Shown piece by piece: positions 2,511 to 52,972 of a stretch of 64,000 nucleotides of DNA. The notes under the pieces are model-generated. The model was not told the origin of the DNA. It was given only the letters and a program-made list of their open reading frames with translations, and made no database searches. Numbering within the stretch: position 1 is the stretch's first letter; every line of letters begins with the position of its first letter. The position numbers were made by a program, and so were the translations under genes. The stretch comes from Minisyncoccota bacterium (GTDB lineage: Bacteria > Patescibacteriota > Minisyncoccia > Phycocordibacterales > UBA9973), in assembly GCA_041650615.1 (NCBI GenBank), contig JBAZKU010000001.1:91763-155762 (forward strand), given 5' to 3'.

Positions 2511-4421
2511 ATGAGTAAAATAATAGGTATAGATTTGGGTACAACAAATTCGGCTGTCGCTATCATTGAAGGAGGAGCGCCGAAAATTATTGAAAATGTG
2601 GAAGGTAATCGCACTACGCCTTCTGTTGTGGCTATAACAAAAAATGGTGATCGTATCATCGGACTTCTGGCAAAAAGACAAGCAGTTACCAATCCGGAAA
2701 ATACAATTTCTGAAATGAAGCGCTATATGGGCCACCGTTTTGACGATCCCGGAGTACAAAAAGATAAAACTTCTGCTCCTTTTAAAATTGAAGCGGGAGA
2801 AGACGGCGGAGTAAAAGTAAAAATGTCCGATAAATTTTATCGTCCGGAAGAAATTTCTGCGATGGTTTTACAAAAAATAAAATCTGACGTTGAGGCTAAA
2901 TTAGGAGAAAAAATAACTGAAGCAGTTATCACGGTTCCTGCATATTTTAATGATGCGCAAAGAAAAGCGACCAAAGATGCGGGACAAATTGCCGGTCTTG
3001 ATGTAAAACGTATTATTAATGAACCGACGGCTGCCGCTCTTGCTTATGGATTTAATAAAAAGAAAAATGAAAAAATAGTTGTCTACGATTTCGGTGGAGG
3101 AACTTTTGATATATCGGTGCTTGAAATTGGCGATGATGTTATTGAAGTAAAATCAACCGATGGCGACTCGCATATGGGTGGAGGAGATATTGATAGGAAA
3201 GTTATTGCTTGGATTGCCGAAGAGTATAAAAAGGAATCAGGAATTGATATTAGAAAAGATCCGCTTGCTCATCAAAGATTAAAAGAAGCGGCTGAAAAAG
3301 CGAAACATGAACTTTCCACTACCTTGGAAGCGGAAATAAATATTCCGTTCATTACTTCCGATTCTGGAGGACCGAAACATTTACTGATGAAAATGACCCG
3401 AGCCACGCTGGAATCTTTAGCCAAAGAATATATTGATCGTTCTATTGAAATAACTAAAAGAGCGCTTGAGGCATCTCCGTTTAAGATGAATGAAATAAAT
3501 GAGATTGTAATGGTGGGCGGACAAACTAGAATGCCAATGATGGTAGAAGCGGTAAAAAATCTTTTCGGTAAAACGCCGAATATGACCATTAATCCTGATG
3601 AAGTTGTAGCCTTGGGTGCTGCCGTGCAAGGAGGTGTCTTAGCCGGAGATGTGCGGGATGTATTGCTCTTGGACGTGATACCGCTTTCTCTTGGTATTGA
3701 GACATTGGGAGGGGTAGCTACAAAATTAATTGATAGAAATACAACTATTCCAGCTTCTAAATCTCAAGTATTTTCAACAGCAGCTGATAATCAGACTTCT
3801 GTGGAAATTCATATAGTACAAGGGGAACGCCCGATGGCATCCGATAATAAATCTCTCGGTAGATTTATTTTAGATGGGATTCCACCAGCTCCTCGCGGTA
3901 TACCGCAAGTGGAAGTTACTTTTGATATTGACGTGAATGGAATATTAAATGTAAAAGCGATGGATAAAGCTTCTGGCAAAGCCCAGTCAATTAAAATAGA
4001 AGCAAGTTCGGGATTGAAAGAGGAAGATATTAAAAGAATGCAAGCGGATGCCGAATCGCATGCTGAAGAAGATAAAAAGAAAAAAGAAATTGTGGATGTA
4101 AAAAATACGGCGGAAATGATTATTTACACTGCTGAAAAGGCATTGAAAGACAATGAAGCAAAAATTCCAACCGATGTGAAAGAAAGTGTCAACACAAAAA
4201 TAACTGCTTTGCGCGGAGTAAAAGATGGCACTGATACGGAAGCAATTAAAAAAGCTACCGAAGAACTTTCCAATGAAATGTCTAAAATCGGCGAAGCCAT
4301 GAGCAAGGCCGGAGGAACACCTCCTCCAGGTGCTTCAGCTCCCGAAGAGCAGGGGCCAGAAGTTCATGATGCAGAATTCAAGGAGGGGGATAAAGGTAAA
4401 GAAGAACCTCCGAAACAGTAA
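2511..4421 (+). CDS. dnaK: molecular chaperone DnaK (Hsp70)
   Basis: 636 aa with [39 protein letters not shown] and a charged C-terminal tail. Confidence 0.97.
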
Positions 4422-4430
4422 ATAATTTTT

Positions 4431-4470
4431 CCCGGACACCTTCCGGACACCTGGTGTCCGGAACCAAAAC
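4431..4470. repeat. 23-bp perfect palindrome TTCCGGACACC-T-GGTGTCCGGAA preceded by a direct half-site CCCGGACACC
   Basis: Read directly. The half-site ACCTGGTGTCCGGA is identical to 14 nt of the TWCPEC-coding motif at 8642..8655. Confidence 0.7.
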
Positions 4471-4500
4471 AAAAAGCCCTTTTAAAAGGGCTTTTTGTTT
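4471..4500 (+). terminator. rho-independent terminator after dnaK
   Basis: Stem AAAGCCCTTT / AAAGGGCTTT with a TTAA loop, followed by TTTTTGTTT. Confidence 0.7.
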
Positions 4501-4528
4501 TGATAAAAATTTAATTTTAGGGTATAAT
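4500..4528 (+). promoter_or_regulatory. promoter TTGATA-17-TATAAT, 8 nt upstream of ATG 4537 (leaderless)
   Basis: TTGATA at 4500..4505, TATAAT at 4523..4528, ATG at 4537. Confidence 0.5.
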
Positions 4529-4536
4529 TTACCCGT

Positions 4537-6624
4537 ATGGAGTTGCACGAGTTACCTAAAAATAAAGAAATAACATATATTGGTTATACCACTTACCGGG
4601 ATAAAAATCAGCTTTTTGGCATAAAACGCAAAGATAGGCGTCAGCATGTTTATATCCTCGGAAAATCCGGTACCGGTAAATCTGCGTTGATGTTCAATAT
4701 GATTATTCAGAATATTGAAAACGGCGACGGAGTTTGCATGGTTGACCCGCACGGGGAAAATGTGGAAGCAATTTTATCAGCTATTCCGCCGCACCGCATG
4801 AAAGATGTCGTTTATTTCAATCCGGCAGATACAGATTTTCATATTGGATTTAATGTTTTGGAACTCATTGACCCAAAATACAAACACTTAGTGGCTTCAG
4901 GGCTTATGGGTATTTTCACAAAAATTTGGGCGAACGCTTGGAGCGCTCGAATGGAATACATTTTAAATAATGCGATTTTAGCATTACTTGATACTCCAGG
5001 TTCAACTCTTCTCGGTATTCCTAGAATGCTAGTGGACAAAGATTATCGACAAAAAATAATCACCAATTTAAAAGACCCTGTAATCAAGGCTTTCTGGGTG
5101 CATGAATATGAGGCCTGGCAGGATAAATTCAGAAACGAAGCTATCGCGCCGATTCAAAATAAAGTCGGACAATTTCTTTCCACTTCCATTATCAGAAATA
5201 TTGTCGGTCAATCTATCAGTACCATAAATATTTTTGACATAATGAATGAAGGCAAGATTTTTCTGGTGAATGTTTCCAAGGGGCGTATCGGTGAAGACAA
5301 TTCTTCGCTCTTGGGAGGAATGATCATTACCAAAATTCAGTTGGCGGCTATGGAACGCGTGCGTATCCCGGAAGAAGTCAGAAAAGATTTCTATCTTTAT
5401 GTGGATGAATTTCAAAATTTCGTAACTGATGCTTTCGCTGGTATTTTGTCTGAAGCCAGAAAATATAGATTAAATCTTACGGTGGCCCATCAATACACCG
5501 CTCAACTTATTACGGAAAAAAATTCGAGTGTTCGAGATGCTATTTTTGGAAACGTCGGAACGATGATAGTTTTTAGAGTCGGAGCTGATGATGCGGAATT
5601 TTTGGAAAAAGAATTTGAACCGGAGTTTACCCCTCAAGATATTGTCAATTTGCCAAACTTTAAAGTCTATTTGAAATTAATGATAGATGGTGTATCATCT
5701 CGTCCGTTTTCCGCCAAGACTCTTCCGCCGATGGTAAAATCAGGCAATAAAGAAGTGGAAGAAGAAGTTATAAAAACTTCTCGCGCCCTTTATTGCAGGC
5801 CGAGAGAAGTAGTGGAAAGAGAAATAAATGATTGGAGCGGAATGTCCATCGGTGATGATAGTAATTCCGGTGGCGTAGAAAAATTTCCGGCTATATGCTC
5901 CAATTGCGGAAAAGAAACGACAGTGCCTTTCAAACCGGAGCCGGGCAGGGCAGTATATTGTAAGGATTGTATAGCCAAAATAAAATCTGGAGAAATAAAA
6001 CCGATTGCCGGAGCCACAAAACAAATCAAACAAGATGAGACCAAGTTTTATAAACCCTTGGCTGATTTAGGGATAGAGTTTAAATCAAAAGATGGAACTA
6101 ATGGTATTAATGGAGAAGCAGAAAGATATCCGGAAAGATTAGGTAAGGCCGTACCGCATGATTTTGATAAAAAAATTCCAACTTCCGCAGGAAATGCTTC
6201 ATTTGCGCGTCCGCGAATATTTTCAACAATTAAGAAAGTTTTTACTAAAGGCACTACGAATGAAAAAGCAGCTCCAGTAAAAACAGTGAGAGAAAATCCA
6301 GGGTTAAAAGAGATTTTAAATAAAGCGCTATCTGAAAATAAACCTTCTGTTTCAACACCCATTAAAACTCCAACCCCTGTTTCTGTTCCCACACCAGCCC
6401 CGATTTCTCTTGATGCTCTTAAAACAGTACCTTCAAAACCTGCCCGCAGTGCTACACATGGCGTTGCAGGCGGGGACCGCGCAGCTAGTGCTGAAGATAT
6501 GGATAAATTAAAGAATCTTATTTCAGAGAAAGTTCCCGCGTCCGCGAATAAAGCAAAAGCTTCGCCCGTAGGGACACAGCCGAGGGAAGTTCCGGAAGAT
6601 GTTTTGAGAAAAATTTTAGAGTAA
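4537..6624 (+). CDS. soluble FtsK/HerA/TraD (type IV coupling-protein)-like P-loop ATPase with C-terminal CxxC-x17-CxxC zinc ribbon and Pro/Ala/Lys-rich tail
   Basis: 695 aa. Walker A ILGKSGTGKS, then DPHGE, then Walker B FYLYVDEFQNF. No N-terminal TM segment. Paralog of the ORF at 10477. Confidence 0.75.
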   Translation: MELHELPKNKEITYIGYTTYRDKNQLFGIKRKDRRQHVYILGKSGTGKSALMFNMIIQNIENGDGVCMVDPHGENVEAILSAIPPHRMKDVVYFNPADTDFHIGFNVLELIDPKYKHLVASGLMGIFTKIWANAWSARMEYILNNAILALLDTPGSTLLGIPRMLVDKDYRQKIITNLKDPVIKAFWVHEYEAWQDKFRNEAIAPIQNKVGQFLSTSIIRNIVGQSISTINIFDIMNEGKIFLVNVSKGRIGEDNSSLLGGMIITKIQLAAMERVRIPEEVRKDFYLYVDEFQNFVTDAFAGILSEARKYRLNLTVAHQYTAQLITEKNSSVRDAIFGNVGTMIVFRVGADDAEFLEKEFEPEFTPQDIVNLPNFKVYLKLMIDGVSSRPFSAKTLPPMVKSGNKEVEEEVIKTSRALYCRPREVVEREINDWSGMSIGDDSNSGGVEKFPAICSNCGKETTVPFKPEPGRAVYCKDCIAKIKSGEIKPIAGATKQIKQDETKFYKPLADLGIEFKSKDGTNGINGEAERYPERLGKAVPHDFDKKIPTSAGNASFARPRIFSTIKKVFTKGTTNEKAAPVKTVRENPGLKEILNKALSENKPSVSTPIKTPTPVSVPTPAPISLDALKTVPSKPARSATHGVAGGDRAASAEDMDKLKNLISEKVPASANKAKASPVGTQPREVPEDVLRKILE

Positions 6625-6638
6625 AATTGGCGGGGAAA

Positions 6639-6670
6639 GGTCTTGCCTTAAGGGAGTTCAAGGCAAGACC
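6639..6670 (+). terminator. 11-bp perfect stem-loop (GGTCTTGCCTT...AAGGCAAGACC) between the ATPase and paralog B; no U-tract
   Basis: Inverted repeat read directly. A terminator or processing site is possible. Confidence 0.35.
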
Positions 6671-6687
6671 TTGAGAAGCCAAGATAT

Positions 6688-8415
6688 ATGAATAATGCTA
6701 GTGAAAAGAAAATATGTCAAAACTGTCATGCTGAATTTACCATTGAGCCTGAAGATTTTAAATTTTATGAAAAAATAAAAGTTCCACCACCGACTTTTTG
6801 TCCTGAATGCCGAACGGTTCGGCGTTTATGCTGGAGAAATGAAATGTCTCTTTTTAAGAGAAAATGTGATGCAGAAGGACATGACGAAAATGTTATTACC
6901 ATCTATCACCCCGACGAAAAACTCACAGTATATGATATAAAATCTTGGTGGGGAGATAAATGGAATGCTGTTTTACACGGAAAAGATTATGACTTCTCCA
7001 AACCATTTTTTCAGCAATGGAAAGAGTTGCGCGACAGCATCCCGCTTCAATGTCTTTCGAATTCAAAAGCAACAAATAGCGATTATTGCAATGTTGCCGA
7101 AGAAAGTAAAGATAGTTATATGTCTTCAGCTTCCTGGAAAATAGAAAAGACATTTTATTCAAATAGGATAGGAGAAACCAAAGAATCTTCAGATCTTTAC
7201 GTAGTTCATAAGTCTGAGCTTTGTTATGAAGATATATTTTGCACGGATTGTTATCATACTTTGTATTCCCTAAAGTGCAAAAATTGTGTAGATTCATATT
7301 TTTTGTATGATTGTAACGGTTGCATAGATTGTTTCGGATGTAGTAATCTTCGAAGTAAGTCATATTGCATGTGGAATGAACAGCTTACAAGGGAAGAATA
7401 TATGAACCGTTTGGCGAAACTGGATCTTAAAAGTTACAAAACGATACTTGAATCAAAAAAGAAATTTGACGAGCTTTACCTAAAATCAATTCATCGTTTT
7501 GCCAACCAGATTAGAATAATAAATTCTACCGGCGATAATCTTGATGGAGCAAAGAACTGTAAGGCATGTTTTGATACATTTGACCAAGTGGAAGATTGTA
7601 AATATTCTCATTGGAACATACGCGTGAAAGATGCATATGATTCAGGCCCAGGGGGTGGAGAAGGAGAATTGATGTATGAAATATTTGACACTGGACTGGG
7701 TAATTTTCGCAATTTATTTACTAATGTAGTTTATAGTTCTAATGACATTGAATATTCTTTTTATTGTTATGGTTGCTCATATTTATTTGGATGTATCGGT
7801 ATAAGAAATAAAAATTATTGCATTTTAAATAAACAATATACAAAAGAATCCTTCGAGGAACTCAGGACAAAAATCAAAGAGCAGATGAATGAAATGCCAT
7901 ATATTGATAAAAGAGGAATTGTCTATAAATACGGAGAATTTTTTCCAGCTGAAATTTCTCCATTTTGCTACAATGAAACTCAAGCGCAAGATTATTTTCC
8001 ATTAACCAAAGAAGAAGCGCTTAAGAGAGGGTATAGATGGCGGGATAGAAAAACTAGTGATTATGTAACGACAATACAGGCCGAAGATCTTCCAGATAGC
8101 TTGGATGATACTCCAGATTCTATTACTGAAGAGATTATAGGTTGCTTGCATAAAGGAAAATGTAAAGATCGCTGTTTAGGGGCCTTTAAAATAACAGAGA
8201 ACGAGTTTAGATTATATCACCAACTCGGAGTACCACTGCCACGCCTTTGTTTTATTTGTCGTCACGAAGCCAGATTAAGAAAACGCAACCCTATGAAATT
8301 ATGGCGCCGAAAGTGTATGAAACCTGGTTGTTCCAATGAATTTGAAACAACTTACGCTCCCGATAGGCCGGAAATAATTTACTGCGAGAGTTGTTATAAT
8401 AAAGAGGTGTATTAG
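6688..8415 (+). CDS. Cys-rich multi-zinc-ribbon protein, paralog B
   Basis: 575 aa with the same N-terminal CxNC..CPECR ribbon and the same conserved C-terminal domain as the ORF at 162. Confidence 0.85.
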   Translation: MNNASEKKICQNCHAEFTIEPEDFKFYEKIKVPPPTFCPECRTVRRLCWRNEMSLFKRKCDAEGHDENVITIYHPDEKLTVYDIKSWWGDKWNAVLHGKDYDFSKPFFQQWKELRDSIPLQCLSNSKATNSDYCNVAEESKDSYMSSASWKIEKTFYSNRIGETKESSDLYVVHKSELCYEDIFCTDCYHTLYSLKCKNCVDSYFLYDCNGCIDCFGCSNLRSKSYCMWNEQLTREEYMNRLAKLDLKSYKTILESKKKFDELYLKSIHRFANQIRIINSTGDNLDGAKNCKACFDTFDQVEDCKYSHWNIRVKDAYDSGPGGGEGELMYEIFDTGLGNFRNLFTNVVYSSNDIEYSFYCYGCSYLFGCIGIRNKNYCILNKQYTKESFEELRTKIKEQMNEMPYIDKRGIVYKYGEFFPAEISPFCYNETQAQDYFPLTKEEALKRGYRWRDRKTSDYVTTIQAEDLPDSLDDTPDSITEEIIGCLHKGKCKDRCLGAFKITENEFRLYHQLGVPLPRLCFICRHEARLRKRNPMKLWRRKCMKPGCSNEFETTYAPDRPEIIYCESCYNKEVY

Positions 8416-14624: not shown

Positions 14625-15980
14625 TTACATTTTATTTATTTTATATCCATCTCCTCCGTCCTTTATTTCGTATCCCAGAGAGTTTATTTTAACTCGCAAT
14701 TCGTCGGATTTTTTGAAGTCTTTATTTTTGCGGACCCGTTCTCGCTCCTCCGCCAATTTTAAAATTTCTTCCGGAATTTCTTCTTCTTTTATATTTTCAA
14801 AACCGAGCCCTAATACTTTATCAAAATCAAGAATAGTGGCTTTTTTATCGGCAGGGGAAATGATTTCGTCTTTTACTACGTCCCAAACTAAAGCTAAAGC
14901 TCTCGGAGTGTCTAGGTCGTCTTCTAGGTATTCTTTGAACTTTTGCTGGTATTCGCTACTTATTTTACCCACCTTGCTCCCAAGCTCAATATAGAGCTTA
15001 TAAAGCCGTTTTAGGGCTATATCTGCGCCTTCTAGCGCATCCCAGACGAAGTTTACCCTAGTCCTATAACTAGCCATTAAAAGCCAAAATCTATAGGAAA
15101 TTGGGCTAATTCCTTTATCCGAAACATCCTTTAAAGTGTAAAAATTATGCTCCGATTTTGCCATTTTCTTCTGATCAACCAAGACCCATTCATTGTGCAT
15201 CCAATATTTTACAAATTGTTTGCCGGTCGCGCCTTCGGATTGAGCGATTTCATTTTCATGGTGGGGAAATATATTATCCACCCCACCTGTGTGCAAGTCT
15301 ATTTGTTCTCCTAAATTTGACATGGACATCGCAGAGCATTCAATATGCCAGCCGGGTCGTCCTTTTCCCAATTCGTTTTCCCAAAAAACATCTCCATCTT
15401 TTTCATCCCAAGCTTTCCAAAGAGCAAAATCTTGAATATTATCTTTTTCATATTCGTCCGTTTTTATTCTTCCGGCCGCATTTTCTTTTTGTTCTTCCAA
15501 GACAAGATGAGAAAGTTTTCCATAATTTTTGAATTTTTTTATATCAAAATAAATGCTATTGTCATTGCTTTTATAAGCTAGGCCATTTTTCATTAATTTT
15601 TTTATAAGATCAACCATTTCATCAATATAATCCGTAGCCTTCGTAAACTTAGTCGGTTTTAAAATATTGAGCTTTTTTTCATCTTCCAAAAAAGCTTCAG
15701 TATAAAACTCCGTAAATTCCTTCAATGTTTTTTTTGCTTTTTGCGAATCTCTTATAGTCTTATCGTCAATATCAGTCAAATTCATTATGTGTTTTACTTT
15801 AAAACCCTCATACAGCAAAACGCGCTTTAATATATCGGCAAAAATATAAGCGCGGTAATTTCCGATATGAGGATAATTGTAAACGGTAGGCCCACAGGAA
15901 TAAAAACTGACATTAGGAGGGTCAATCGGAGTAAAAATCTCTTTTTCTCTTGTCAGTGTATTGTAAAATCTTAAAGGCAT
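14625..15980 (-). CDS. cysS: cysteinyl-tRNA synthetase
   Basis: CGPTVYNYPHIGN (HIGH motif) and KMAKS (KMSKS motif); 451 aa. Confidence 0.9.
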   Translation of the reverse strand: MPLRFYNTLTREKEIFTPIDPPNVSFYSCGPTVYNYPHIGNYRAYIFADILKRVLLYEGFKVKHIMNLTDIDDKTIRDSQKAKKTLKEFTEFYTEAFLEDEKKLNILKPTKFTKATDYIDEMVDLIKKLMKNGLAYKSNDNSIYFDIKKFKNYGKLSHLVLEEQKENAAGRIKTDEYEKDNIQDFALWKAWDEKDGDVFWENELGKGRPGWHIECSAMSMSNLGEQIDLHTGGVDNIFPHHENEIAQSEGATGKQFVKYWMHNEWVLVDQKKMAKSEHNFYTLKDVSDKGISPISYRFWLLMASYRTRVNFVWDALEGADIALKRLYKLYIELGSKVGKISSEYQQKFKEYLEDDLDTPRALALVWDVVKDEIISPADKKATILDFDKVLGLGFENIKEEEIPEEILKLAEERERVRKNKDFKKSDELRVKINSLGYEIKDGGDGYKINKM

Positions 15981-15994
15981 TTTATTTTTTCAGT

Positions 15995-17017
15995 TTATAA
16001 AGATATATTTTGCTTGAATTCATTTCTATATATTGAAATAAGAGTGTAGAGCAAACTTATGGTTAAAGGTCCTATTAAAATACCAATCGGACCCAAAAGA
16101 GAGATTCCACCTAAGACAGAAAATAGGATTAAAAGGGGAGGCAAGTTTATTTTATTGCCTACAATAATTGGATTCAATATATTGTCTATAGTTCCAACAA
16201 TTGCTACTGCCCAAATCAAAAGCCCTATGGATTCCATTGTATTTCCTGTCATAAAGAGAAATATTATAGCCGGTATGGAAACAAGCCCAGTTCCAATAGT
16301 GGGAATGAGAGCTGCTATCATGGCTACCAATCCCCAAAGCGCCGGATTTGGTATTCCAAAAAATGCAAATCCGAGACTTATTAATGTTCCTTGGATAAGA
16401 GCAACAAGAAGATATCCTTTAAGAATACCATTTACCGCGCGCGCAAGTTTTTTTATTATTTTTTCATCATCAACATCCGAAAGTGGGCTTAATACTTTTA
16501 TTGCTTTTTTCCAGTGTGTGCCATCCTTCAAAAAATAAAAAATAGATAAAAGAGTAAGAATTGAAGAAAGAATAGCAGACAATGTAGAAGTAAAGATATT
16601 TGCTATATTATTTGTTATAAAAGAAATAAAACTTGAAATTTTTTCATATAAGTCAAAAGAAACACCCTCAGGCAGTATTCTATTTATTGAATTATTTATT
16701 GAATCTATAAAAGACAAAGAGTGAACATTATTAATTATCATTTGATAAGCATCTTGACTTTGATTAAAAACCAGCAAACTTATGCCAAAAAGAGGAATAC
16801 CAATTATTATTATAAAAAAAAGTACAGTGAGGAATGAAGATAACCAATCCGGCAATTTTCTTTTATTGAACCATTCATAAACCGGATAAAGTACTATGGA
16901 AAAAGAAATACCGAGTACCAGTACTATCCAAAAAGGGCGAAAAATCAAAAAAGAAAAAATAAAAACAGCGAATAGTAAAATAAAGAAAAAATATCTTTCA
17001 ATAATTTTTGATTGCAT
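15995..17017 (-). CDS. AI-2E family (UPF0118/PerM-like) transporter
   Basis: 340-aa polytopic protein with the conserved segment GILKGYLLVALIQG...IPTIGTG. Confidence 0.75.
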   Translation of the reverse strand: MQSKIIERYFFFILLFAVFIFSFLIFRPFWIVLVLGISFSIVLYPVYEWFNKRKLPDWLSSFLTVLFFIIIIGIPLFGISLLVFNQSQDAYQMIINNVHSLSFIDSINNSINRILPEGVSFDLYEKISSFISFITNNIANIFTSTLSAILSSILTLLSIFYFLKDGTHWKKAIKVLSPLSDVDDEKIIKKLARAVNGILKGYLLVALIQGTLISLGFAFFGIPNPALWGLVAMIAALIPTIGTGLVSIPAIIFLFMTGNTMESIGLLIWAVAIVGTIDNILNPIIVGNKINLPPLLILFSVLGGISLLGPIGILIGPLTISLLYTLISIYRNEFKQNISL

Positions 17018-17094
17018 ATGTCAAATATTATAGACTATAAATCTATAAATTACAACCATATTTTGACACAGGGTTGCCTTTTTCAAAAATTTCA

Positions 17095-17100
17095 TATAAT
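17095..17100 (+). promoter_or_regulatory. -10 box TATAAT, 9 nt upstream of the rplU ATG
   Basis: Read directly. Confidence 0.4.
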
Positions 17101-17109
17101 ATAGATTCT

Positions 17110-17427
17110 ATGAAATTTGCGGTTATACAAACAGGCGGAAAACAATACAAAGTCTCTAAAGACGGCTTCCTTTCCATTGAAAAGATAATAGGGGAATATA
17201 AAGTCGGGGATAAAGTTTCCTTTGATAAGGTTCTCTTAGTTGACGACGGCAAGAATACCACCATTGGCACGCCTTATATTGAAGACGCTAAAGTAAATGC
17301 GGAAATTGTAGAAATCGGCCGTTCTAGAAAAGTTTTGGTTATGAAATACAAGCAGAAATCTCGCTACCTCCGTCGCAACGGCCACCGCCAGCCATTCTTT
17401 AAAGTAAAAATTCTTGATATAAAATAA
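17110..17427 (+). CDS. rplU: ribosomal protein bL21
   Basis: MKFAVIQTGGKQYKV...RRNGHRQPFFKVKI. The start is 36 nt inside the tracked ORF. Confidence 0.9.
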   Translation: MKFAVIQTGGKQYKVSKDGFLSIEKIIGEYKVGDKVSFDKVLLVDDGKNTTIGTPYIEDAKVNAEIVEIGRSRKVLVMKYKQKSRYLRRNGHRQPFFKVKILDIK

Positions 17428-17431
17428 AAAA

Positions 17432-17464
17432 AACATCCCGATTTAAATTAGGATGTTTTTTTTG
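17432..17464 (+). terminator. rho-independent terminator after rplU
   Basis: Stem AACATCC/GGATGTT followed by T9. Confidence 0.7.
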
Positions 17465-17493
17465 TGAAAAACCCAAGAATAATGTTTTTAAGG

Positions 17494-18205
17494 GTGTACA
17501 TAGGAGTGTACATAGGAGTTTCCTATGTATTTGTATCACTAAAGTTAAGCCATTCAAATAGTTCCTTTTTATGATCAATTAATTTTTTAAAATAAATAGG
17601 GAATTGTGATGGATTTAGGATTTGAAATTTTTGCTCAGTATATTCTTTTATGCTTGAATAAGGATATTTTAGAACGTAATTTAGTAAATTAGTTCTATTA
17701 TTATTTTTACTCTCTCGCCAATTTTTATTTATCAATTTTGCTGGATTTAAATGTATATATGAATAAATATATTTTAAATAATTATCTTTATCTATATGAA
17801 TTGATTTAAATACACCCTCATACAATTTACCAGTTCTTTTATATTTTTTATTAAAATACATTGAATATCCAGTTAACAATTTACGCATATATGTAGAAAT
17901 GCCGTTTTCTTTTTTTTCGCGGACAAGAATATGGAAATGATTTGGCATTAAACAATATGCTCCAACATCAACGATTGTTTCTTCTCTATTAAAAAATTTA
18001 TCAATTTCTCTTAGAATGATACTTTTTTCTGTATTACAAAGATACATCAGAAATAGAAAATGTTCATAGTCTTTTTTATCTAAAAATATTATTCTTTTTT
18101 CTGTGCCACGATTATATAAATGATAGTATTCATTTATCGAGAAGGATTGTTTTCTCAGAGCCATAATTTAAGTATAACACATACATAGGAAACTCCTATG
18201 TATTA
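17494..18205 (-). mobile_element. IS200/IS605-like (REP-associated tyrosine transposase) element with hairpin ends
   Basis: Left end: GTACATAGGAG x2 then ACATAGGAGTTTCCTATGT (17496..17529). Right end: ACATAGGAAACTCCTATGT (18183..18201), its exact reverse complement. Confidence 0.7.
17523..18164 (-). CDS. HUH tyrosine transposase (RAYT / TnpA-IS200-like)
   Basis: YHLYNRG, LMPNHFHILV (HuH) and a C-terminal YSYIHLNP motif; 213 aa. Confidence 0.75.
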   Translation of the reverse strand: MALRKQSFSINEYYHLYNRGTEKRIIFLDKKDYEHFLFLMYLCNTEKSIILREIDKFFNREETIVDVGAYCLMPNHFHILVREKKENGISTYMRKLLTGYSMYFNKKYKRTGKLYEGVFKSIHIDKDNYLKYIYSYIHLNPAKLINKNWRESKNNNRTNLLNYVLKYPYSSIKEYTEQKFQILNPSQFPIYFKKLIDHKKELFEWLNFSDTNT

Positions 18206-18331
18206 TGTATTATTTTTGTTGACAAGTTAAAATTTTTCTGCTATTCTATATATAGAGATATTCGTATAGAAAAAGTAATTATTGTTATTTGTTAAATCAA
18301 ACATTTTAACCAAATTTTTTTGGAGGTATTT

Positions 18332-18610
18332 ATGATTATCACCCATAATATACAGTACGACGGAAACGTACATATCATCAAGATTTTACAACCAAAAGGT
18401 ATTTTGGTAACTATGCGGATAATGTTACCTGGTCAATATGATTTTGGCGTAGTTGGGGCAGGGTCTAAACAAAAAATAACTGTAATCTATGGCCAAATGA
18501 GAATAAACGACAGTGTTTATTTTACCGGGCAAACATGCATTTTAGAATCGGGAAACCCGATTCTTGTTGTGACTATGGAACCATGTGGATACAAGTGTAT
18601 CTATGAATAA
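18332..18610 (+). CDS. ppnP: pyrimidine/purine nucleoside phosphorylase PpnP-like (DUF1255 cupin)
   Basis: 92 aa. MLPGQYDFG...EPCGYKCIY matches the YaiE/PpnP pattern. GGAGG lies 7 nt upstream of the ATG at 18332. Confidence 0.55.
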   Translation: MIITHNIQYDGNVHIIKILQPKGILVTMRIMLPGQYDFGVVGAGSKQKITVIYGQMRINDSVYFTGQTCILESGNPILVVTMEPCGYKCIYE

Positions 18611-18659
18611 ATATGATTGAATTTTTCTCCCAACGGATTGAGGTCCATTGGGAGATTTT

Positions 18660-19307
18660 TTATTGTCTATTTTTTAGGGCGTTTTTGAGAGTATCGTTAT
18701 CGGAATATTCAAGTTCAGTGCCGGTGGAGAGACCCCTGCCTAGTGAAGAAATCTTTATGCCTAAAGGTTCAGCAACAGGTTTTAACTGATTGCGAACATA
18801 TAAATCGGTATGATTACCTTGCGGACTTAAGGAAAAAGCTAGAACAATTTCCCCGCCTCGCGTCGACGAGTCTCCACGAGTCGAGGCGGGTTTTAAAAAA
18901 TCTCTTTTTATTTTTTCTATCAGCTCATTAATTCTTATTCTTTTATTTGTATTTTTTTCAACAATCGGCACCAGTCCTCCCAAAATAAAATATTTGCCGT
19001 TATAAACCCTGCTGGCATTTATACTTTCAAAATCGGAATCTTTTTCCACCACCATCAGAGTGGAAGAATCAATACTTTTATCGGCGCAAATTTCGCACAC
19101 TTTTTCTTTTTTGGATTCAGATATAAAAAATCTAAAACATTCAGAACATTGCATGGTATCTTTTCTTAATTCTTTAATTAAATCGGATAAATTAGAAGTG
19201 TAATCTAAATTTTTAGCCATCAAAAAATAAACAAAACGTTTTGCTTGTCTTTCTCCAATACCGGGAAATTCTTTAAAAATTTCAGTTAATTTTTCTATGG
19301 TGTTCAT
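18660..19307 (-). CDS. recR: recombination protein RecR
   Basis: HhH FPGIGERQAKR, a C4 zinc finger CSECFRF...CEICAD and a Toprim region. Carries the in-frame 39-bp palindrome (PASTRGDSSTRGG). Confidence 0.9.
   Translation of the reverse strand: MNTIEKLTEIFKEFPGIGERQAKRFVYFLMAKNLDYTSNLSDLIKELRKDTMQCSECFRFFISESKKEKVCEICADKSIDSSTLMVVEKDSDFESINASRVYNGKYFILGGLVPIVEKNTNKRIRINELIEKIKRDFLKPASTRGDSSTRGGEIVLAFSLSPQGNHTDLYVRNQLKPVAEPLGIKISSLGRGLSTGTELEYSDNDTLKNALKNRQ
18852..18890. repeat. 39-bp GC-rich palindromic element (CCCGCCTCG...CGAGGCGGG) inserted in frame in recR
   Basis: Differs by 1 nt from the reverse complement of 32375..32413; related to 33353..33391. Confidence 0.85.
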
Positions 19308-21882: not shown

Positions 21883-21991
21883 AATTATGTATTTTTAGTT
21901 CTTTCAAAAAGGAGGTGATTCCTATGGGATGGGATATAGATTGGTGGTTCTAAGGGCTGGCAGTAAAGCGACTTTGCCCATCGCGCAAAAT

Positions 21992-22043
21992 GGCGAATAT
22001 TCTCGAAAGAGAATATTCGCCATTTCTTTTTCTGCTTTTTTTA
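21992..22043 (+). terminator. strong rho-independent terminator (13-bp stem GGCGAATATTCTC, GAAA loop, T-rich tail)
   Basis: Read directly. Lies ~110 nt after the trpS stop. Confidence 0.75.
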
Positions 22044-22144: not shown

Positions 22145-23554
22145 CAAAATAGGGTTTATATAAAAGATTTAAAAGATAATATAGGTAAAGAAATAATTAT
22201 CGCCGGCTGGGTGAATATCAGACGCGACCAGGGGAAAATGGTTTTTTTTGATATGCGAGATATGACGGGCTTGGTGCAATGCGTAGTCTTGCCGAGTCAC
22301 GCCGAGGCCATAGAAAAAGCCAAAGAAATTCGCCCTGAATGGGTTTTAAAAATTACCGGTATGGTCAATAAGCGCCCGGACAAAAATGTAAAAGCTGGTG
22401 TCTTAAATGGTGAAGTAGAACTGGAAGTTACGGATATTGAGGTATTAAGCAAAGCAGAAACCCCAGCCATTGATGTATCAACTGATGGATATGAAATAGG
22501 GGAAGAACATAGGCTAGAACACAGATATCTTGATTTACGTAGAGGTCGCATGCAGAAAAATATTCGCAACAGACATAAAGTTGTAAAATTTATTCGTGAT
22601 TACTTGGATAAAGAAAATTTTATTGAGATAGAAACCCCTATACTTTCCAAATCGACAGCTGAAGGGGCTCGGGATTTTATTGTGCCTTCAAGATTGGACC
22701 AAGGAAAATTTTATGCATTACCTCAAGCTCCCCAGCAATATAAACAACTTTTAATGGCATCTGGTATAGAAAAATATTTCCAAATGGCAAAATGTATGCG
22801 TGATGAAGACTTACGAGGGGATCGTCAGCCGGAATTTACTCAACTTGATCTTGAAATGAGTTTTGTAGATCGCGAAGAAGTAATGTCTCTTAATGAAGAT
22901 TTATTGATAAAAATCGTAAAGAAACTGTATCCAGAAAAAGAAATACAAGAAATTCCTTTTCCCAGAATTGCCTACAAGGATGCAATGAAGAAATACGGGA
23001 GTGATAGGCCAGATTTAAGAAAAGATAAGAATAATAAAAATATTCTGGCTTTCTGTTGGGTTGTTGATTTTCCATTTTTCGAAAAAGCAAACAAAGATAA
23101 TAATCCACAGGCAGAAGGTGAATGGACTTTTACGCACAATCCTTTTTCAGCCACACAGCCGCAATTTCACGATGATTTATTAAATAAAAGAAATATTCCA
23201 AATATCCTTACAAATCAATATGATATTATTTTAAACGGTTTTGAAATTGGCGGTGGTTCAATCAGGAACCATGAACCTGAAGCGCTTCTTGCTGTTTATG
23301 AGATAATGGGTGTAAAAAAGGAACAAGTAGAAAAAAATCTATTCTATATGTTAGAAGCTTTTCGTTCCGGTACCCCTCCACATGGAGGTATCGCTTGGGG
23401 TTTTGATCGATTAATGATGGTACTTGAGAATGAATCGAATATCAGAGAAGTAATAGCATTTCCAAAAAATGGTGAAGGGAAAGACTTAATGATGAATTCT
23501 CCTTCAGAAATACCTGAAAAGCAATTGAAAGAATTGGGGATAAAATTAAAGTAA
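22142..23554 (+). CDS. aspS: aspartyl-tRNA synthetase (short, archaeal/non-discriminating-like length)
   Basis: 470 aa with class II motifs (FRDE-like CMRDEDLR, GGGSIRNH). Confidence 0.9.
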   Translation: MQNRVYIKDLKDNIGKEIIIAGWVNIRRDQGKMVFFDMRDMTGLVQCVVLPSHAEAIEKAKEIRPEWVLKITGMVNKRPDKNVKAGVLNGEVELEVTDIEVLSKAETPAIDVSTDGYEIGEEHRLEHRYLDLRRGRMQKNIRNRHKVVKFIRDYLDKENFIEIETPILSKSTAEGARDFIVPSRLDQGKFYALPQAPQQYKQLLMASGIEKYFQMAKCMRDEDLRGDRQPEFTQLDLEMSFVDREEVMSLNEDLLIKIVKKLYPEKEIQEIPFPRIAYKDAMKKYGSDRPDLRKDKNNKNILAFCWVVDFPFFEKANKDNNPQAEGEWTFTHNPFSATQPQFHDDLLNKRNIPNILTNQYDIILNGFEIGGGSIRNHEPEALLAVYEIMGVKKEQVEKNLFYMLEAFRSGTPPHGGIAWGFDRLMMVLENESNIREVIAFPKNGEGKDLMMNSPSEIPEKQLKELGIKLK

Positions 23555-26104
23555 AAAATCCTTTATATTTTTTCTATCTCTTTTGAGCCATTCAATATTG
23601 TTTTCCAATTGTTCTATTACTTGCTCCATAGAGCGTTCGGCGCCGGTGGCGCCACGGTGAGCAGCCGCAAATTTTTTAAAAAGCGATAAATGCCTTTTTT
23701 CAGCGCTTCTATCTATTATTTTAATGAGTCCCGCCAATGTATGGTTGCCATCTCCATAATGCGCTACTAATGTCTTCCAATTTTTTTTAACAAAATTTAA
23801 CCAAATATCGCGACCTGCCGGATTTATTCCAACTGACGAGATTATACTTATTACATCCTGTGCTCGAACATCTTTAGATAGCGCGAATTGACATGCTTTT
23901 GATAAAATTTTAGGTTCGGAGAAATATCCCAAGGCGCGACCAATACGCTCTTTTTCTTCGTGAAATTTTTCTTTTTTATACAGTTTTATGAAGGTTTGGT
24001 ATTCTTTCATACCTCCCCAAGTTGCTATTATTGCATAAATAGCGCCGCGAATGTCCGGATTGATATAACCACCTTTTTTCATTATGTTAAATTTCTTTTT
24101 TGCTTTAATTATGATTTTCTTATCCCCCAATCTTCCCAGTTTAGAAATTATAAGCGGTCTAAGAAGCGTATCGTTATATGATTCGGATTTTTTTTCTTCC
24201 CAGTCAAGGCGTTTAAAAGCAGGGGAGAATAGGTCAAATATTAGAAAATCCAGTTTTTCTTTCAATTCTGTTTTAGCCACAAGCTGTTCAAGTCGCGCCA
24301 GTCCGCCAGTAAGTTCAAACCACACAGTATAATTATTTTCATTTTTATATGCTTTTAAAAATTCCAAAGCATAACTGGTTGGAATATCACCCGATTCAGC
24401 CAAAGCGAAGAGGTCTCGGATAATGCCAAGTCTGTCGCAAGGAGAAAGAATTTTATTTTGAACCGGCTTAATTAAATTTTTCAGAAGTGTTTTTTCATAA
24501 GCTATTCTGAAAAATCCGTTTTCGCCTATGTTTATTTTTATCCACGGAAGAGAATTTGGAACGGATATTTTTTTATCCGAAAGAAAAACCATTTTTTTGT
24601 TTTTATCATTTCCGACAAAGACGGGGGTTTGCCAAACGGTTTTATCTTTTGCTTTAATTTTTGATTTAGCACTCATAAAAAATCTGTTTTGAGATAAAGC
24701 AAGCTTATCATTCACAATATCCGTTTTAATAACTGGATAGCCGGATTTAGAAGTCCAGTTATGCATAACACCGGCTACTGGTTTTTTGGAAACCTTTTCA
24801 AAGGCTTTCCATAAGTGAATCGTTTCCGTATTTTTATAACTATGTTTTTTCAAATAATATCTGAGTCCGTTTTTGAAATTTTTCTCGCCCAGATAACTTG
24901 CCAACATTTTTATAATTGCCGGTCCTTTGGAATATGAAATTCTGTCAAATATTTCTCCAATTTCGCTTGGATGACGCACTGTTATTTGAATAGGGTGAGT
25001 AGATAAAAGTGAATCTAATCTCAAAGCCATATTGGATGAAACACTTGTGCTATTGGCGGAAAATTGCGTCCAGATATCCCATTTTGGGAAAAGCTTATCC
25101 ACGGCCAAATATTCTATATATGAAGCGAAACCCTCGTTTAGCCATAAATGGGTCCACCATTCCATGGTAACCAAATTACCGAACCATTGATGGGCAAGCT
25201 CGTGTGCCACAACAAGGGCCACCCATTGCTTTTGGGATAAAGAGGAGTGATTTTCATCAATTAGAAGCGAAGTTTCGCGATAAGTAATTGCTCCCCAGTT
25301 TTCCATGGCGGCTGAAGCAAAATCCGGAATAGCTATCATGTCCAATGTTGGCAATGGGTAGGGAATGGCGAAATATTTCTCAAAAAATTCCAAAGTTTTT
25401 ACGGCGCAATCAAGAGCAAATTTTGCCTGATGTTTTTTGCCGGGAGTGGTAAAGACACGCACTAATTTACCGTTTTTGGTTTTTGATTCTAAATATTCAA
25501 AATCCCCAATAATGAATGCCAAGAGATAAGTGGACATTTTGGGAGTAGGGGAGAATTTTATAATTTCAAATCCGGCACTATGTTCGGCAACAGAGACAGG
25601 TAATGTGTTTGAAATCGCCGTTTTACCTTTCGGCACAATAAGTGATACATGAAAAACGGCTTTATGCGCCGGTTCATCAAAACAAGGGAAAGCTCGACGC
25701 GCATCGGTGGATTCAAACTGAGTGGTGGCCATATGATGTTCTTTACCTTCAAAATAATATTTGCTTCGGTAAAATCCCCGCATTTTTTCATTTAATATGC
25801 CTGCAAAAACAATAGTAAGTTTTATGTCTTTTTTAATGGGAATATATCTGGGGAATAAAAATATAGCTGTTTCGTTTTTATCATCGTAGGATATTTTTTT
25901 GGCAAATATTTTTTCTTTATCAATTACAATACTGGCGGTTTCTATTTCAAGTTCCTTAGAGTGAAGAATAATGGATTTTGTTTTCTTTAAAATAGAAAGG
26001 GTTATCGTCTCCATACCCTCAAAAGTAAAATTCTCCAAATCTGGTTGGAGTTGTATTTCGTATTTTGTTGGAATTACTTTTTTTGAAAGCCGAATATTTT
26101 GCAT
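23546..26104 (-). CDS. pepN: M1 family aminopeptidase N
   Basis: AAMENWG plus HELAHQWFGNLVTMEWW...NEGFASY; 852 aa. Confidence 0.9.
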   Translation of the reverse strand: MQNIRLSKKVIPTKYEIQLQPDLENFTFEGMETITLSILKKTKSIILHSKELEIETASIVIDKEKIFAKKISYDDKNETAIFLFPRYIPIKKDIKLTIVFAGILNEKMRGFYRSKYYFEGKEHHMATTQFESTDARRAFPCFDEPAHKAVFHVSLIVPKGKTAISNTLPVSVAEHSAGFEIIKFSPTPKMSTYLLAFIIGDFEYLESKTKNGKLVRVFTTPGKKHQAKFALDCAVKTLEFFEKYFAIPYPLPTLDMIAIPDFASAAMENWGAITYRETSLLIDENHSSLSQKQWVALVVAHELAHQWFGNLVTMEWWTHLWLNEGFASYIEYLAVDKLFPKWDIWTQFSANSTSVSSNMALRLDSLLSTHPIQITVRHPSEIGEIFDRISYSKGPAIIKMLASYLGEKNFKNGLRYYLKKHSYKNTETIHLWKAFEKVSKKPVAGVMHNWTSKSGYPVIKTDIVNDKLALSQNRFFMSAKSKIKAKDKTVWQTPVFVGNDKNKKMVFLSDKKISVPNSLPWIKINIGENGFFRIAYEKTLLKNLIKPVQNKILSPCDRLGIIRDLFALAESGDIPTSYALEFLKAYKNENNYTVWFELTGGLARLEQLVAKTELKEKLDFLIFDLFSPAFKRLDWEEKKSESYNDTLLRPLIISKLGRLGDKKIIIKAKKKFNIMKKGGYINPDIRGAIYAIIATWGGMKEYQTFIKLYKKEKFHEEKERIGRALGYFSEPKILSKACQFALSKDVRAQDVISIISSVGINPAGRDIWLNFVKKNWKTLVAHYGDGNHTLAGLIKIIDRSAEKRHLSLFKKFAAAHRGATGAERSMEQVIEQLENNIEWLKRDRKNIKDFLL

Positions 26105-40572: not shown

Positions 40573-40627
40573 GGAATAGCCTTTTTGTCAACATTGCTAG
40601 GTTAATACCACGTCGCACAATATATGT

Positions 40628-40668
40628 TTGGGGTAGTATAATACTACCCCAAACATTGCGCAGATTGT
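40628..40668. terminator. bidirectional terminator candidate: 16-bp perfect stem ATGTTTGGGGTAGTAT-AA-ATACTACCCCAAACAT between convergent genes
   Basis: Flanked by the direct repeat ACGTCGCACAAT at 40611 and 40681. Confidence 0.5.
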
Positions 40669-43185: not shown

Positions 43186-43458
43186 TTATTTTTTATTTAA
43201 TTTGACTTGTTCTTCCAAGTTTATCTCAATTTCATTAAAATTATTATTTTCGGAAAAATTATCGAAGGTTTTTTCTTCTGTCTCCCCTGCTTTAAAATCC
43301 CTGTATAGCATATAACCGAAACAAATAATTGCCAGGCCGGAGATTGAAAAGAGTATATTCTTAAAAGAATATGGAAAACCTAAATATGGCAATACCGCTA
43401 CCCAAACACCTAATCCAAAAATTATTTTCACTTTAGTCATTTTTATATTATATAGCAT
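43186..43458 (-). CDS. small membrane protein
   Basis: 90 aa with two TM helices. Confidence 0.5.
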   Translation of the reverse strand: MLYNIKMTKVKIIFGLGVWVAVLPYLGFPYSFKNILFSISGLAIICFGYMLYRDFKAGETEEKTFDNFSENNNFNEIEINLEEQVKLNKK

Positions 43459-43510
43459 TTAAATAAGCAAAACAATACTTTTTCACGGACCGAAAAAAGC
43501 ATTGTTTTGC

Positions 43511-45205
43511 TTATTTAAAATACTCCGGAGTATTTATGGACATCCAATCCAAAAGTTGACGCATGACGGAAGATGCGCCTACGCTATTCGAAGATGGTCC
43601 TGCTTCCATCATTATAGTGAACGCATATTTGGGATTTTCATAAGGGAAAAACCCTATAATCCAAGAGTTAACTTTATTTTTATTTACCCCGAGCTGAGCG
43701 GTCCCGGTTTTAGAAGCGACTTGCACATAAGGCACATTTATTAGTGAGGAAGTTCCTACCAAAACGCTTTGTCTCATTCCTTCATGAACAACATCAAAAT
43801 ATTCTCTTTTTAAATCCAAGATTGAAATTTTATTTTCCTTTTCCACATCTCCTAAAACATAATGCGGAGTAATCAATGTACCATAATTCGCGATAGCAGA
43901 TACCGCACGCGTCATTTCTATAGGAGTTACTTGAAATCCATATTGTCCGATAACAGTATTATAAGTATCTCCTACGCGCCATGGTTCACCCTTAAAGTTT
44001 TTTATTTTCCATTCAGGACTTGGAATTACTCCTCCTTTTTCATCCGGCAAATCCACTCCGGTTTTTTCTCCAATGCCGAAAAGTTTTGCATATTTTTCAA
44101 TATTAACTATACCCAAACCTTTTTGGTCTTCAAATCCACCGCCGATTTCATAAAAATAAATGTCGCTGGATACGGCCAAAGCTTGCCGCATATCTACCCA
44201 TCCATGCGCTTTCCAGTCTTTAAAAACAGTCTTCTGGTCCGGGAAATATGGATTTGGTATTGAAATAGAATCTGTAGATAATATTTTTTTCAAGGGATCA
44301 ATTACGCCTTCTGTCAGCGCTCCTATGGCAAAAAATGGCTTTACGATAGAACCTGGCGTATAAAGTCCGGAGATGGTTTTATCTAAAAAAACTTTTCTTT
44401 TATCATTTAAATAATCTTGAATTGTTTTAGTATCTTTACCCAGAGAAAGGATTTCAGAATTATATTCCGGGAAACTGACAGAAGCTAATACTTCCCCGTT
44501 ATTAACATCCATTAATATGCCTGCTCCACCCGAAAAAGAATTGCTTTGTGATAGATTCTGAATCAGGGTATATAACTCTTTTTGAATACGCGAATCAATT
44601 GTTGTTACCAGGTCAACGCCGCGCAATGGAGCATTTACTATATTTTCTGAATGGACTATCTTATGTGCATCTATTTCTACTATTTTTGAGCCATTGGTTC
44701 CTTCCAGTGATTGATTATATTGTTTTTCCAACCCATCTTTGCCTATAAAATTGCTTTGCCAATAGTTTCCGGATTTATCTTGCATTGGATAACTTACGTA
44801 GCCCAAAAGATGTGAAAATCCTGGAGATAAATATGAGCGAATTGAGGTAGGTAAATCGGCATTTTTTGTGTTCCAAGCAAGTTCTTTTTTATTTCTGTCA
44901 TAAATAATTCCCCTATCGCTGAAAATAATTTGTTTTTCTAAGACATTGTTTTGGCTTCTATTTAAATATGCCTCACCTTTTTGTATTTGAAGATAACCAA
45001 GTCTGACAGAAAATATTCCTACAAATAATAAAAAAAAAGCGCCGATAAAGGAGATGGTTTTTTTAGAAATTGGTTTTTCTATTCGGCCTTCAAATTGCTG
45101 GCGGTCGAAATTTTGTAAATTTTTAGAATCAAGAAAAATCTCATCGGGCTCTACGAAGAAGTTGGCATTTTTAATTTTTCTTTTCCTTAACATTTTTCTA
45201 ATCAT
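43511..45205 (-). CDS. class B penicillin-binding protein (PBP2/FtsI-type transpeptidase)
   Basis: SIVKP (SxxK), SSD (SxN) and KTGTA (KTG) motifs; N-terminal TM. Confidence 0.85.
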   Translation of the reverse strand: MIRKMLRKRKIKNANFFVEPDEIFLDSKNLQNFDRQQFEGRIEKPISKKTISFIGAFFLLFVGIFSVRLGYLQIQKGEAYLNRSQNNVLEKQIIFSDRGIIYDRNKKELAWNTKNADLPTSIRSYLSPGFSHLLGYVSYPMQDKSGNYWQSNFIGKDGLEKQYNQSLEGTNGSKIVEIDAHKIVHSENIVNAPLRGVDLVTTIDSRIQKELYTLIQNLSQSNSFSGGAGILMDVNNGEVLASVSFPEYNSEILSLGKDTKTIQDYLNDKRKVFLDKTISGLYTPGSIVKPFFAIGALTEGVIDPLKKILSTDSISIPNPYFPDQKTVFKDWKAHGWVDMRQALAVSSDIYFYEIGGGFEDQKGLGIVNIEKYAKLFGIGEKTGVDLPDEKGGVIPSPEWKIKNFKGEPWRVGDTYNTVIGQYGFQVTPIEMTRAVSAIANYGTLITPHYVLGDVEKENKISILDLKREYFDVVHEGMRQSVLVGTSSLINVPYVQVASKTGTAQLGVNKNKVNSWIIGFFPYENPKYAFTIMMEAGPSSNSVGASSVMRQLLDWMSINTPEYFK

Positions 45206-46318: not shown

Positions 46319-46395
46319 AGGAATATTATATCAGATTTTACCACAAGTCAGACATGTGAGTTATCCCACATGTCTGACTTGTGGAATGACTTCTG

Positions 46396-52906: not shown

Positions 52907-52972
52907 CGGTACGGATTTTTTGAAGCTTAAAAAATCCTGAAGTTTTCGCGCCGTCGCGCTCAAAACCCCTTA
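52907..52972. repeat. double-hairpin repeat, second copy
   Basis: Over 90% identical to 30168..30240. Confidence 0.8.

Follow-up and report, generated by a model that had tools for sequence, protein, structure and literature searches.

A 64,000-nucleotide stretch of the genome of a Minisyncoccota bacterium (GenBank assembly GCA_041650615.1, contig JBAZKU010000001.1, positions 91,763 to 155,762; hereafter, the window) carries at 17494-18205 a gene for a Y1-type HUH/Tyr protein enclosed by two copies of one palindrome, and the locus raises the question of whether this gene is a transposase that jumps, a nuclease that serves the host, or the resident partner of the hairpins that surround it. The arrangement is probably a REPtron-like module, in which an inherited single-copy class-2 Y1 gene lies between inverted copies of the putative palindrome of its own enzyme, as known for the REP-associated tyrosine transposases (RAYTs; REP, repetitive extragenic palindromic). 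The evidence comes from the class of the protein, from the matched hairpins that accompany most of its homologues, and from the co-inheritance of the gene with its housekeeping neighbours.

The Y1 gene, its hairpins and its promoter

The unit consists of the following features:

17523..18164, minus strand: Y1 HUH/Tyr gene, 213 aa (open reading frame translation and Pfam Y1_Tnp match)
18181..18203: 5' (promoter-side) hairpin, ATACATAGGA-AAC-TCCTATGTAT, 10-bp perfect stem, ending 16 nt before the ATG
17509..17529: 3' hairpin, TACATAGGA-GTT-TCCTATGTA, 9-bp perfect stem, inverted copy of the 5' hairpin
17497..17506: extra outer half-site TACATAGGAG, second copy of one arm (17509-17518), 12-nt period
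18204..18210: short outer partial repeat TATGTAT, repeating 18197-18203 (read from the sequence, with no statistical test)
18171..18179, minus (gene) strand: candidate extended -10 box TGTTATACT, 6 nt before the ATG (read from the sequence)

The gene is the only open reading frame (ORF) within 17494-18205 and the only Y1 homologue in the 64 kb. Both of its ends carry a single palindrome, TACATAGGA-N3-TCCTATGTA, in inverted copies; specifically, the 19-mer ACATAGGAGTTTCCTATGT at 17510-17528 returns as its exact reverse complement at 18183-18201, and these two are all the copies found in 64 kb with up to three mismatches, against a chance expectation of 0.02. Both hairpins have 3-nt loops and fold as single-stranded DNA with -6.5 to -8.2 kcal/mol (z scores of -4.1 to -5.3 relative to shuffled sequence), and the 3' hairpin contains the stop codon TAG of the gene (17523-17525). 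Outer arm repeats similar to the half-site at 17497-17506 also adjoin the hairpins in the homologous loci L138, L117 and L107. The initial annotation had pointed to the exact reverse-complement hairpins, to a tandem repeat and to the motifs YHLYNRG, HFHILV and Y..HLNP, and all of these are in place: TACATAGGAG occurs at 17497-17506 and again at 17509-17518, and the motifs fall within the 213-aa ORF at residues 14-20, at residues 76-81 and, as YIHLNP, from Y136.

Most homologous loci have a TATAAT-like box, often with a preceding TG, located 5-9 nt before the start codon and downstream of the hairpin, and no Shine-Dalgarno sequence is present at these loci. The box at 18171-18179 was not listed by a consensus promoter scan because it has no -35 match. 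From the position of the -10 box, the Y1 mRNA is predicted to be leaderless or nearly so, and the 5' hairpin would lie in the -35/spacer position, outside the transcript, where it appears well placed as an operator; the placement of one hairpin at the promoter and of the other over the stop codon suggests a simple self-regulating unit. An RNA-level role of the 5' hairpin was also considered and rejected, since the hairpin is upstream of the -10 box and therefore not in the mRNA.

The protein matches Pfam Y1_Tnp (PF01797) with 34.5 bits (cut-off 23), residues 63-138 covering profile positions 39-119 of 121. Among 54 diverse homologues, 37-72% identical to the window protein, the HUH motif H76-F77-H78 and N140 are invariant, the candidate catalytic tyrosine Y136 (YIHLNP) is kept in at least 90%, and the tail motif Y169-S170-S171 is conserved. 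Searches of PDB sequences with the single protein or a shallow profile returned nothing relevant, while a profile of diverse homologues aligns the HUH and Tyr motifs with HMH and YIYINP of Escherichia coli TnpA-REP (4ER8), and the HUH also with HVH of ISDra2 TnpA, the matches to solved Y1 enzymes being marginal by sequence alone (E = 0.07-0.17). Thus, the absence of the HUH or Tyr motifs on alignment, which the initial annotation had named as the finding that would overturn it, is not what the alignments give. An AlphaFold model of moderate confidence (pLDDT 62, about 65-87 in the core) has as its top Foldseek match 4er8_A (E = 3.3e-5), that is, TnpA-REP with a bound REP hairpin, followed by 2ec2, 2f4f, 2vjv and 2xm3 (probability 1.00), which are transposases of IS200, IS608 and ISDra2.

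A published classification assigns Y-x3-NP to class 2 (RAYT-like) and Y-x3-Q to the IS200 transposases (PMC6006769, Table 1), and the window motif Y136-IHL-N140-P141 has the class 2 signature. Motifs and modelled fold place the protein among the Y1 HUH/Tyr enzymes of class 2 (RAYT type), and its motifs are those of the subclass 2.1 type. Subclass 2.1 of Quentin et al. 2018, which corresponds to the Group 1 RAYTs of Bertels and to the TIRYT of Di Nocera et al., has the motifs NH[YF]H, W[EQ] or FQ, Y[IV]HLNP and an SS tail (PMC6006769); as far as the published motif table goes, the window protein has NHFH, YIHLNP and Y-S170-S171, and it carries YE at the position where most members of its family have FQ. 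The family also resembles subclass 2.1 in length (~210-240 aa) and in low copy number. The authors of that subclass found no REP-like sequences near its genes and described C-terminal helix-turn-helix (HTH) or Bac_DnaA_C-like domains and GGGG[AT][CG]A[CG] terminal inverted repeats (PMC6006769). The window gene, in contrast, has cognate hairpins, belongs to a patescibacterial host, and codes for a protein with no HTH or Bac_DnaA_C-like C-terminal domain in Pfam at E <= 0.1; GGGG[AT][CG]A[CG] inverted repeats were not noticed when the flanks were read by eye, no pattern search having been run. Neither Parcubacteria nor Patescibacteria are mentioned in the text of the subclass survey (0 occurrences; PMC6006769), and a search of the literature collection available found no account of this family in Patescibacteria. 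The presence of cognate hairpins sets the locus apart from the published subclass 2.1.

Pairing of gene and hairpin across the family

The Y1 relatives detected at E <= 0.001 make up at least about 8,000 protein clusters (90% identity), with at least 592 matching stretches in a collection that holds one genome per species; the best relatives are 70-82% identical, and those with a named source are labelled Patescibacteria or unclassified bacterial metagenome-assembled genomes. Hairpin pairs were surveyed in 80 fetched loci with 78 testable genes, scoring a hairpin upstream of the start and another near the stop as a matched pair when they share at least six stem bases, and positions displaced by 1.4-3 kb within these loci served as controls. 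Matched pairs surround 62 of the 78 homologous genes (79%) versus 1 of 375 shifted control positions (0.3%). In most of the 78 loci, a matching hairpin occupies the 5' position of the window hairpin, and the 3' hairpin of the homologues starts between -38 and +29 nt from the end of the stop codon. The stems vary between loci and agree within a locus, and the type of hairpin tracks the clade of the protein. Across 43 upstream hairpins with 3-nt loops, a set preselected as hairpins, 10 of 10 stem pairs have changed on both sides and 94.7% of the cells are paired, the near-constant part being the stem top only, AGG...CCT. The relative orientation of the loops, scored at 68 homologous loci, is inverted at 33 and direct at 31, and it flips between close relatives; only the loop changes on flipping, because the stems are perfect palindromes. 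Each enzyme variant stands beside its own short hairpin, so the rules of recognition could be readable from covariation, and the locus with its many relatives provides a clean natural series of enzyme/hairpin pairs.

In many distant homologues, the Y1 ORF itself contains a further, third copy of the hairpin that flanks it, in frame and ~154-185 nt from the start of the ORF (L012, L013, L018, L028, L039, L043, L047, L059, L064 and L077). These internal hairpins fall in a variable loop before the HUH strand (e.g., QGSTLE in L013) and are absent from the window clade, the window gene included. REPs inserted in frame within tnpA-REP are described for subclass 2.4 (PMC6006769), which the family resembles through in-frame palindromes in coding sequence, both in distant Y1 homologues and in other genes of relatives, and from which the window gene differs in having no internal hairpin and in carrying YIHLNP instead of YIxNNP. 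Some genomes hold two divergent Y1 copies with differing hairpins (L007/L016, L020/L069), 43-54% identical to the query. Separately, L006 contains two Y1 homologues 3 kb apart, at 4001-4619 and 7039-7677, the first of which is N-terminally truncated or degraded.

The likeness to the RAYT/TnpA-REP REPtrons (E. coli YafM, 4ER8; Pseudomonas RAYT-REPIN) includes the Y1 HUH/Tyr fold with Y-x3-NP, the single copy with housekeeping-like inheritance, the inverted cognate palindromes around the gene, the divergent copies per genome with their own palindromes, and the inverted doublets elsewhere that recall REPINs (REP doublets forming hairpins). Conversely, the GT[AG]G guide tetranucleotide is missing from the 5' foot of the window hairpin, the stems are short (9-10 bp) and AT-rich with the conserved AGG...CCT top, the hairpins overlap promoter and stop codon, no high-copy dispersal is seen in the window, and the protein, at 213 aa and with a conserved tail at its C terminus, is longer and falls below the NCBIfam RayT threshold. 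The missing foot, the short AT-rich stems, the fusion of the hairpins to promoter and stop codon and the lack of observed high-copy dispersal set the locus apart from canonical RAYTs. The RAYT label of the initial annotation is therefore retained for the class, given Y-x3-NP and 4ER8 as the best fold match, and qualified for the form, which is atypical in its NCBIfam score, its hairpin foot and its lack of dispersed copies in the window.

If it works as E. coli TnpA-REP and the TnpA of IS608 and ISDra2 do, the Y1 protein would be a putative single-strand DNA endonuclease-ligase that binds the hairpin in single-stranded DNA, with cleavage and rejoining close to the hairpin foot. The 5' hairpin may also serve as an operator through which Y1 regulates its own expression. 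Acting in trans, the enzyme could copy, flip or disperse hairpins and inverted doublets in a REPIN-like manner, as the analogy and the comparative patterns suggest. The gene itself does not move as an insertion sequence and is gained or lost with a larger block.

Inheritance of the gene and the variable slot beside recR

The order DnaB-RecR-(variable slot)-Y1-rplU is kept in L138 and in L097/L100 (P0006, P0009), with the following identities to the window:

DnaB: 91% in L138; 83-84% in L097/L100
L21: 87% in L138; 80-81% in L097/L100
Y1: 82% in L138; 78-79% in L097/L100
RecR: 78% in L138; 69% in L097/L100
CysS: 61% in L138; 78% in L097/L100

The nonsynonymous divergence (dN) of Y1, 0.10-0.14, is inside the range of the syntenic orthologues DnaB, L21, RecR and CysS, and its ratio to synonymous divergence (dN/dS) against the syntenic orthologues is 0.07-0.11, with dS saturated for all genes. 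L138, L097, L100 and the window agree at all 16 stem bases of the hairpin, and such agreement despite saturated synonymous sites speaks for selection acting on the hairpin sequence. The listed places of P0048 are without exception in one DnaB-RecR context, and all those of P0002 (79% identical) are in one other context (transketolase). Clustering of neighbours over the 80 species-level loci revealed no general synteny, which is limited to closer relatives, and viral contigs, which yielded a single distant relative of 25% identity and four matches to the hairpin, give no hint of phage carriage. Low copy number, vertical inheritance and housekeeping-like evolution are features of RAYTs (Bertels et al. 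2017), and the synteny, the identities and the dN/dS of the window gene conform to them. The Y1 gene, present once in the 64 kb, behaves as a vertically inherited resident under purifying selection and not as a jumping element.

The conservation of the stems also bears on whether the hairpins are ordinary transcription signals, namely bidirectional terminators that insulate a foreign gene and are unrelated to the protein. On the plus strand, the 5' hairpin does score like a terminator and has a T-rich tail, and the window has many terminator-like palindromes. However, the stems are short and AT-rich, the 3' hairpin has no T-run, and the 5' hairpin is upstream of the -10 box, hence outside the mRNA; moreover, the stems are identical at both ends, clade-specific, and conserved where synonymous sites are saturated. 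This explanation is disfavoured and highly improbable.

The gene lies beside rplU and a PpnP-like gene, as the initial annotation had placed it, and a block that spans it is missing in a near-identical strain:

17110-17427: rplU (L21; Pfam 119 bits)
18332..18610, plus strand: PpnP-like gene, 92 aa (weak Pfam Ppnp match, 27.4 bits versus a cut-off of 25)
17432..18655: block of 1,224 bp missing in L083, with the rplU terminator, Y1 and its hairpins, and the PpnP-like gene with its promoter and terminator

L083 (Logan SRR22315506_441305), which represents the sole presence/absence polymorphism found, is 99.69% identical to window positions 15520-17431 (1,912 nt), continues beyond 17431 with 21 unrelated nt, and then enters the recR 3' end at 100% identity; the 21 nt belong to a short terminator hairpin, located where rplU and recR converge. 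The empty-site junctions, 17432 and 18655, lie beyond the outer limits of the hairpin region (17497, 18203) by 65 bp and about 450 bp, and a location away from the hairpins means that no hairpin-guided excision took place. Y1 is gained or lost within a larger block, probably by homologous recombination.

These data can be set against the reading of the locus as an autonomous minimal IS200-like insertion sequence, a ~706-bp hairpin-to-hairpin unit that moves as single-stranded DNA via its own TnpA, which is close to the intact IS200/IS605-like element of the initial annotation. The ~700-bp size, the single Y1 ORF and the subterminal hairpins near both ends are like those of IS200 (subclass 1.1), the genomic context differs among distant homologues, P0002 is in another context in spite of its 79% identity, and the gene is missing from a near-identical strain. 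In contrast, IS200 has Y-x3-Q in a 152-aa core-only protein, ends that are distinct and on one strand, as in IS200/IS605 generally, and multiple near-identical copies, whereas the window has Y-x3-NP in a 213-aa protein, the same palindrome at both ends (in either orientation across the family), and one copy; the paired homologues present in few genomes are only 43-54% identical to the query, and their hairpins differ. Moreover, synteny and co-divergence with housekeeping neighbours despite saturated dS, the single contexts of the listed P0048 and P0002 places, the junctions outside the hairpins and the near absence of the family from viral contigs all argue against mobility. Such an insertion sequence is disfavoured and very unlikely, and the IS200/IS605 label is abandoned together with the implied intact mobility, as the gene is kept between recR and rplU.

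The slot between recR and Y1 contains the PpnP-like gene in the window, is empty in L138, and holds an unannotated 112-aa ORF in L097/L100 and HEPN and inositol monophosphatase genes in L084. A 20-nt difference of L221 from the window in the PpnP-like gene (about 3909-3918) was discarded as a run of Ns, and this scaffold gap accounts for the shorter 62-aa gene call in L221. In some loci, the recR 3' end (coding ...GTELEYSDNDTLKNALKNRQ*) recurs as direct repeats that bound successive small cassettes:

L084 1046-1128, 1476-1558, 2312-2342 and 3068-3133: recR-tail direct repeats, the same in L085-L088 and L152
L097 about 2897-2950 and 4178-4230: diverged recR-tail repeats

The cassettes between these repeats carry HEPN, inositol monophosphatase, the unannotated 112-aa ORF, or Y1 with its hairpins, and one recR-tail copy begins 4 nt past the Y1 3' hairpin. 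The recR 3' end is single-copy in the window, and no duplication of it was found in L138 or L100. Repeated integration at one site would be expected to leave such a pattern, and circular intermediates that enter the same site again and again would likewise give cassettes bounded by recR tails.

Hairpin copies away from the gene and other palindromes

A scan of metagenome contigs for ACATAGGA-N3-TCCTATGT found at least 120 stretches, of which 80 were listed, and 10 of these 80 adjoin a Y1 gene. The stem of the solitary matches is extended by at least 1 bp in 73% (25% expected) and by at least 2 bp in 45% (6% expected), and the loops of the matches are concentrated in four classes. In L143, the identical 19-mer forms an inverted doublet, in frame, in an M1 aminopeptidase gene, and the M1-family aminopeptidase of the window (23552-25603), 63% identical to that of L143, is missing exactly those 10 residues (~24257-24277). 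Similarly, L114 has an in-frame doublet in mnmA, and the orthologue in L160 is without it. L125 and L177, more distant relatives with DnaB-RecR synteny and no Y1 in the fetched stretch, carry a single hairpin in recR (1403-1421 and 891-909, loops AAT and GTC), ~90-110 nt before the stop and in frame by hand translation (~YIGDSYV in L177). Judged from these sequences, the hairpin appears to behave like a REP/REPIN in related genomes. In-frame hairpins inside essential genes of relatives bear on the tolerance of selfish DNA in very small, gene-dense genomes; the Rickettsia palindromic elements are likewise tolerated in frame in coding sequences.

Several observations weigh against the REPtron-like reading. 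No hairpin copy away from the Y1 gene exists in the 64-kb window, and the 486 kb of sequence flanking the homologues contain only 2 distant ones, so that high-copy REP behaviour is unsupported for this genome. A 16-base palindromic pattern in a very large collection is expected to produce some chance matches, and some matches of the scan must be such because several of the contigs are 66-72% GC; furthermore, the doublet-bearing metagenomic contigs could not be linked to a genome with this Y1. As for the protein, its score with the NCBIfam equivalog REP_Tyr_transpos (NF047646), 40.9 bits, is under the cut-off of 80, and the marginal profile matches and moderate model count on the same side, as does the preselection behind the covariation count. 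A GT[AG]G foot has no consensus in the alignment of the 43 hairpins, the window feet being AATA/CATAGG and GTGTA/CATAGG. Lastly, a 99.7%-identical strain without Y1 implies that any host function is dispensable.

Alternatively, Y1 may be a domesticated nuclease with a host role, for instance in replication or repair, apart from any spread of hairpins, the palindromes being operator and terminator only. This would suit a gene that adjoins dnaB and recR, shows housekeeping-like divergence and synteny, has its hairpins at promoter and stop codon with no dispersed copies in the window, and resembles subclass 2.1 enzymes, reported without REPs. Yet an operator and a terminator need not match, and they do in 79% of the loci; the identical 19-mer occurs as inverted doublets in unrelated genes elsewhere; the flips of the loop and the half-arm repeats suggest enzymatic processing; and the gene is dispensable in the sister strain and has no dnaB/recR linkage outside the lineage. 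A purely domesticated nuclease is thus unlikely, and the REPtron-like module is the probable account of the locus. Among transposases that have become long-term residents of genomes, RAYTs are the best studied. A broader proposal, namely that the Y1-hairpin module drives the in-frame seeding of palindromes or doublets and also marks a hot spot of cassette accretion beside recR in Patescibacteria, is speculative and doubtful; if true, both processes would be so far undescribed in Patescibacteria, and the module would be the first link between subclass 2.1/Group 1 RAYTs and a REP-like substrate.

The window is rich in other palindromes, with 30 perfect hairpins of stem at least 9 bp versus 2-5 in shuffled sequence. 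The GC-rich ones were tried as a dispersed substrate of the enzyme and rejected, as their sequence is unrelated to the flanking hairpins, and sequence comparison agrees with the initial annotation that the other palindromes of the window are unrelated to the Y1 hairpin. The main ones are listed here:

18852-18890, 32375-32413 and 33353-33391: 39-nt GC-rich palindrome CCCGCCTCG-N21-CGAGGCGGG, three copies versus 0 expected
6637-6672: intergenic palindrome AAGGTCTTGCCTT-N10-AAGGCAAGACCTT
4463-4504, 21988-22025, 40624-40656, 43458-43519 and 46339-46386: long near-perfect palindromes, 16-25 bp stems, mutually unrelated
30178-30202 and 52913-52937: 25-nt palindrome GGATTTTTTGAAGCTTAAAAAATCC

The 39-nt palindrome (74-78% GC in a genome of ~35% GC) lies in frame inside RecR and the ORFs 32144-32815 and 32799-33725, giving the peptides PASTRGDSSTRGG (twice) and GPPRVGEPLRVEAG, and the RecR orthologue of L088 is without these residues; it resembles the Rickettsia palindromic elements. 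The palindrome at 6637-6672 has the look of two inverted hairpins of the AGG-TCTTG-CCT type, which flanks another Y1 clade (e.g., L046, L031) with no gene in the window. The two copies of the 25-nt palindrome are followed by similar bases, the surrounding 600 bases being otherwise unrepeated. Some of the long palindromes are probably terminators.

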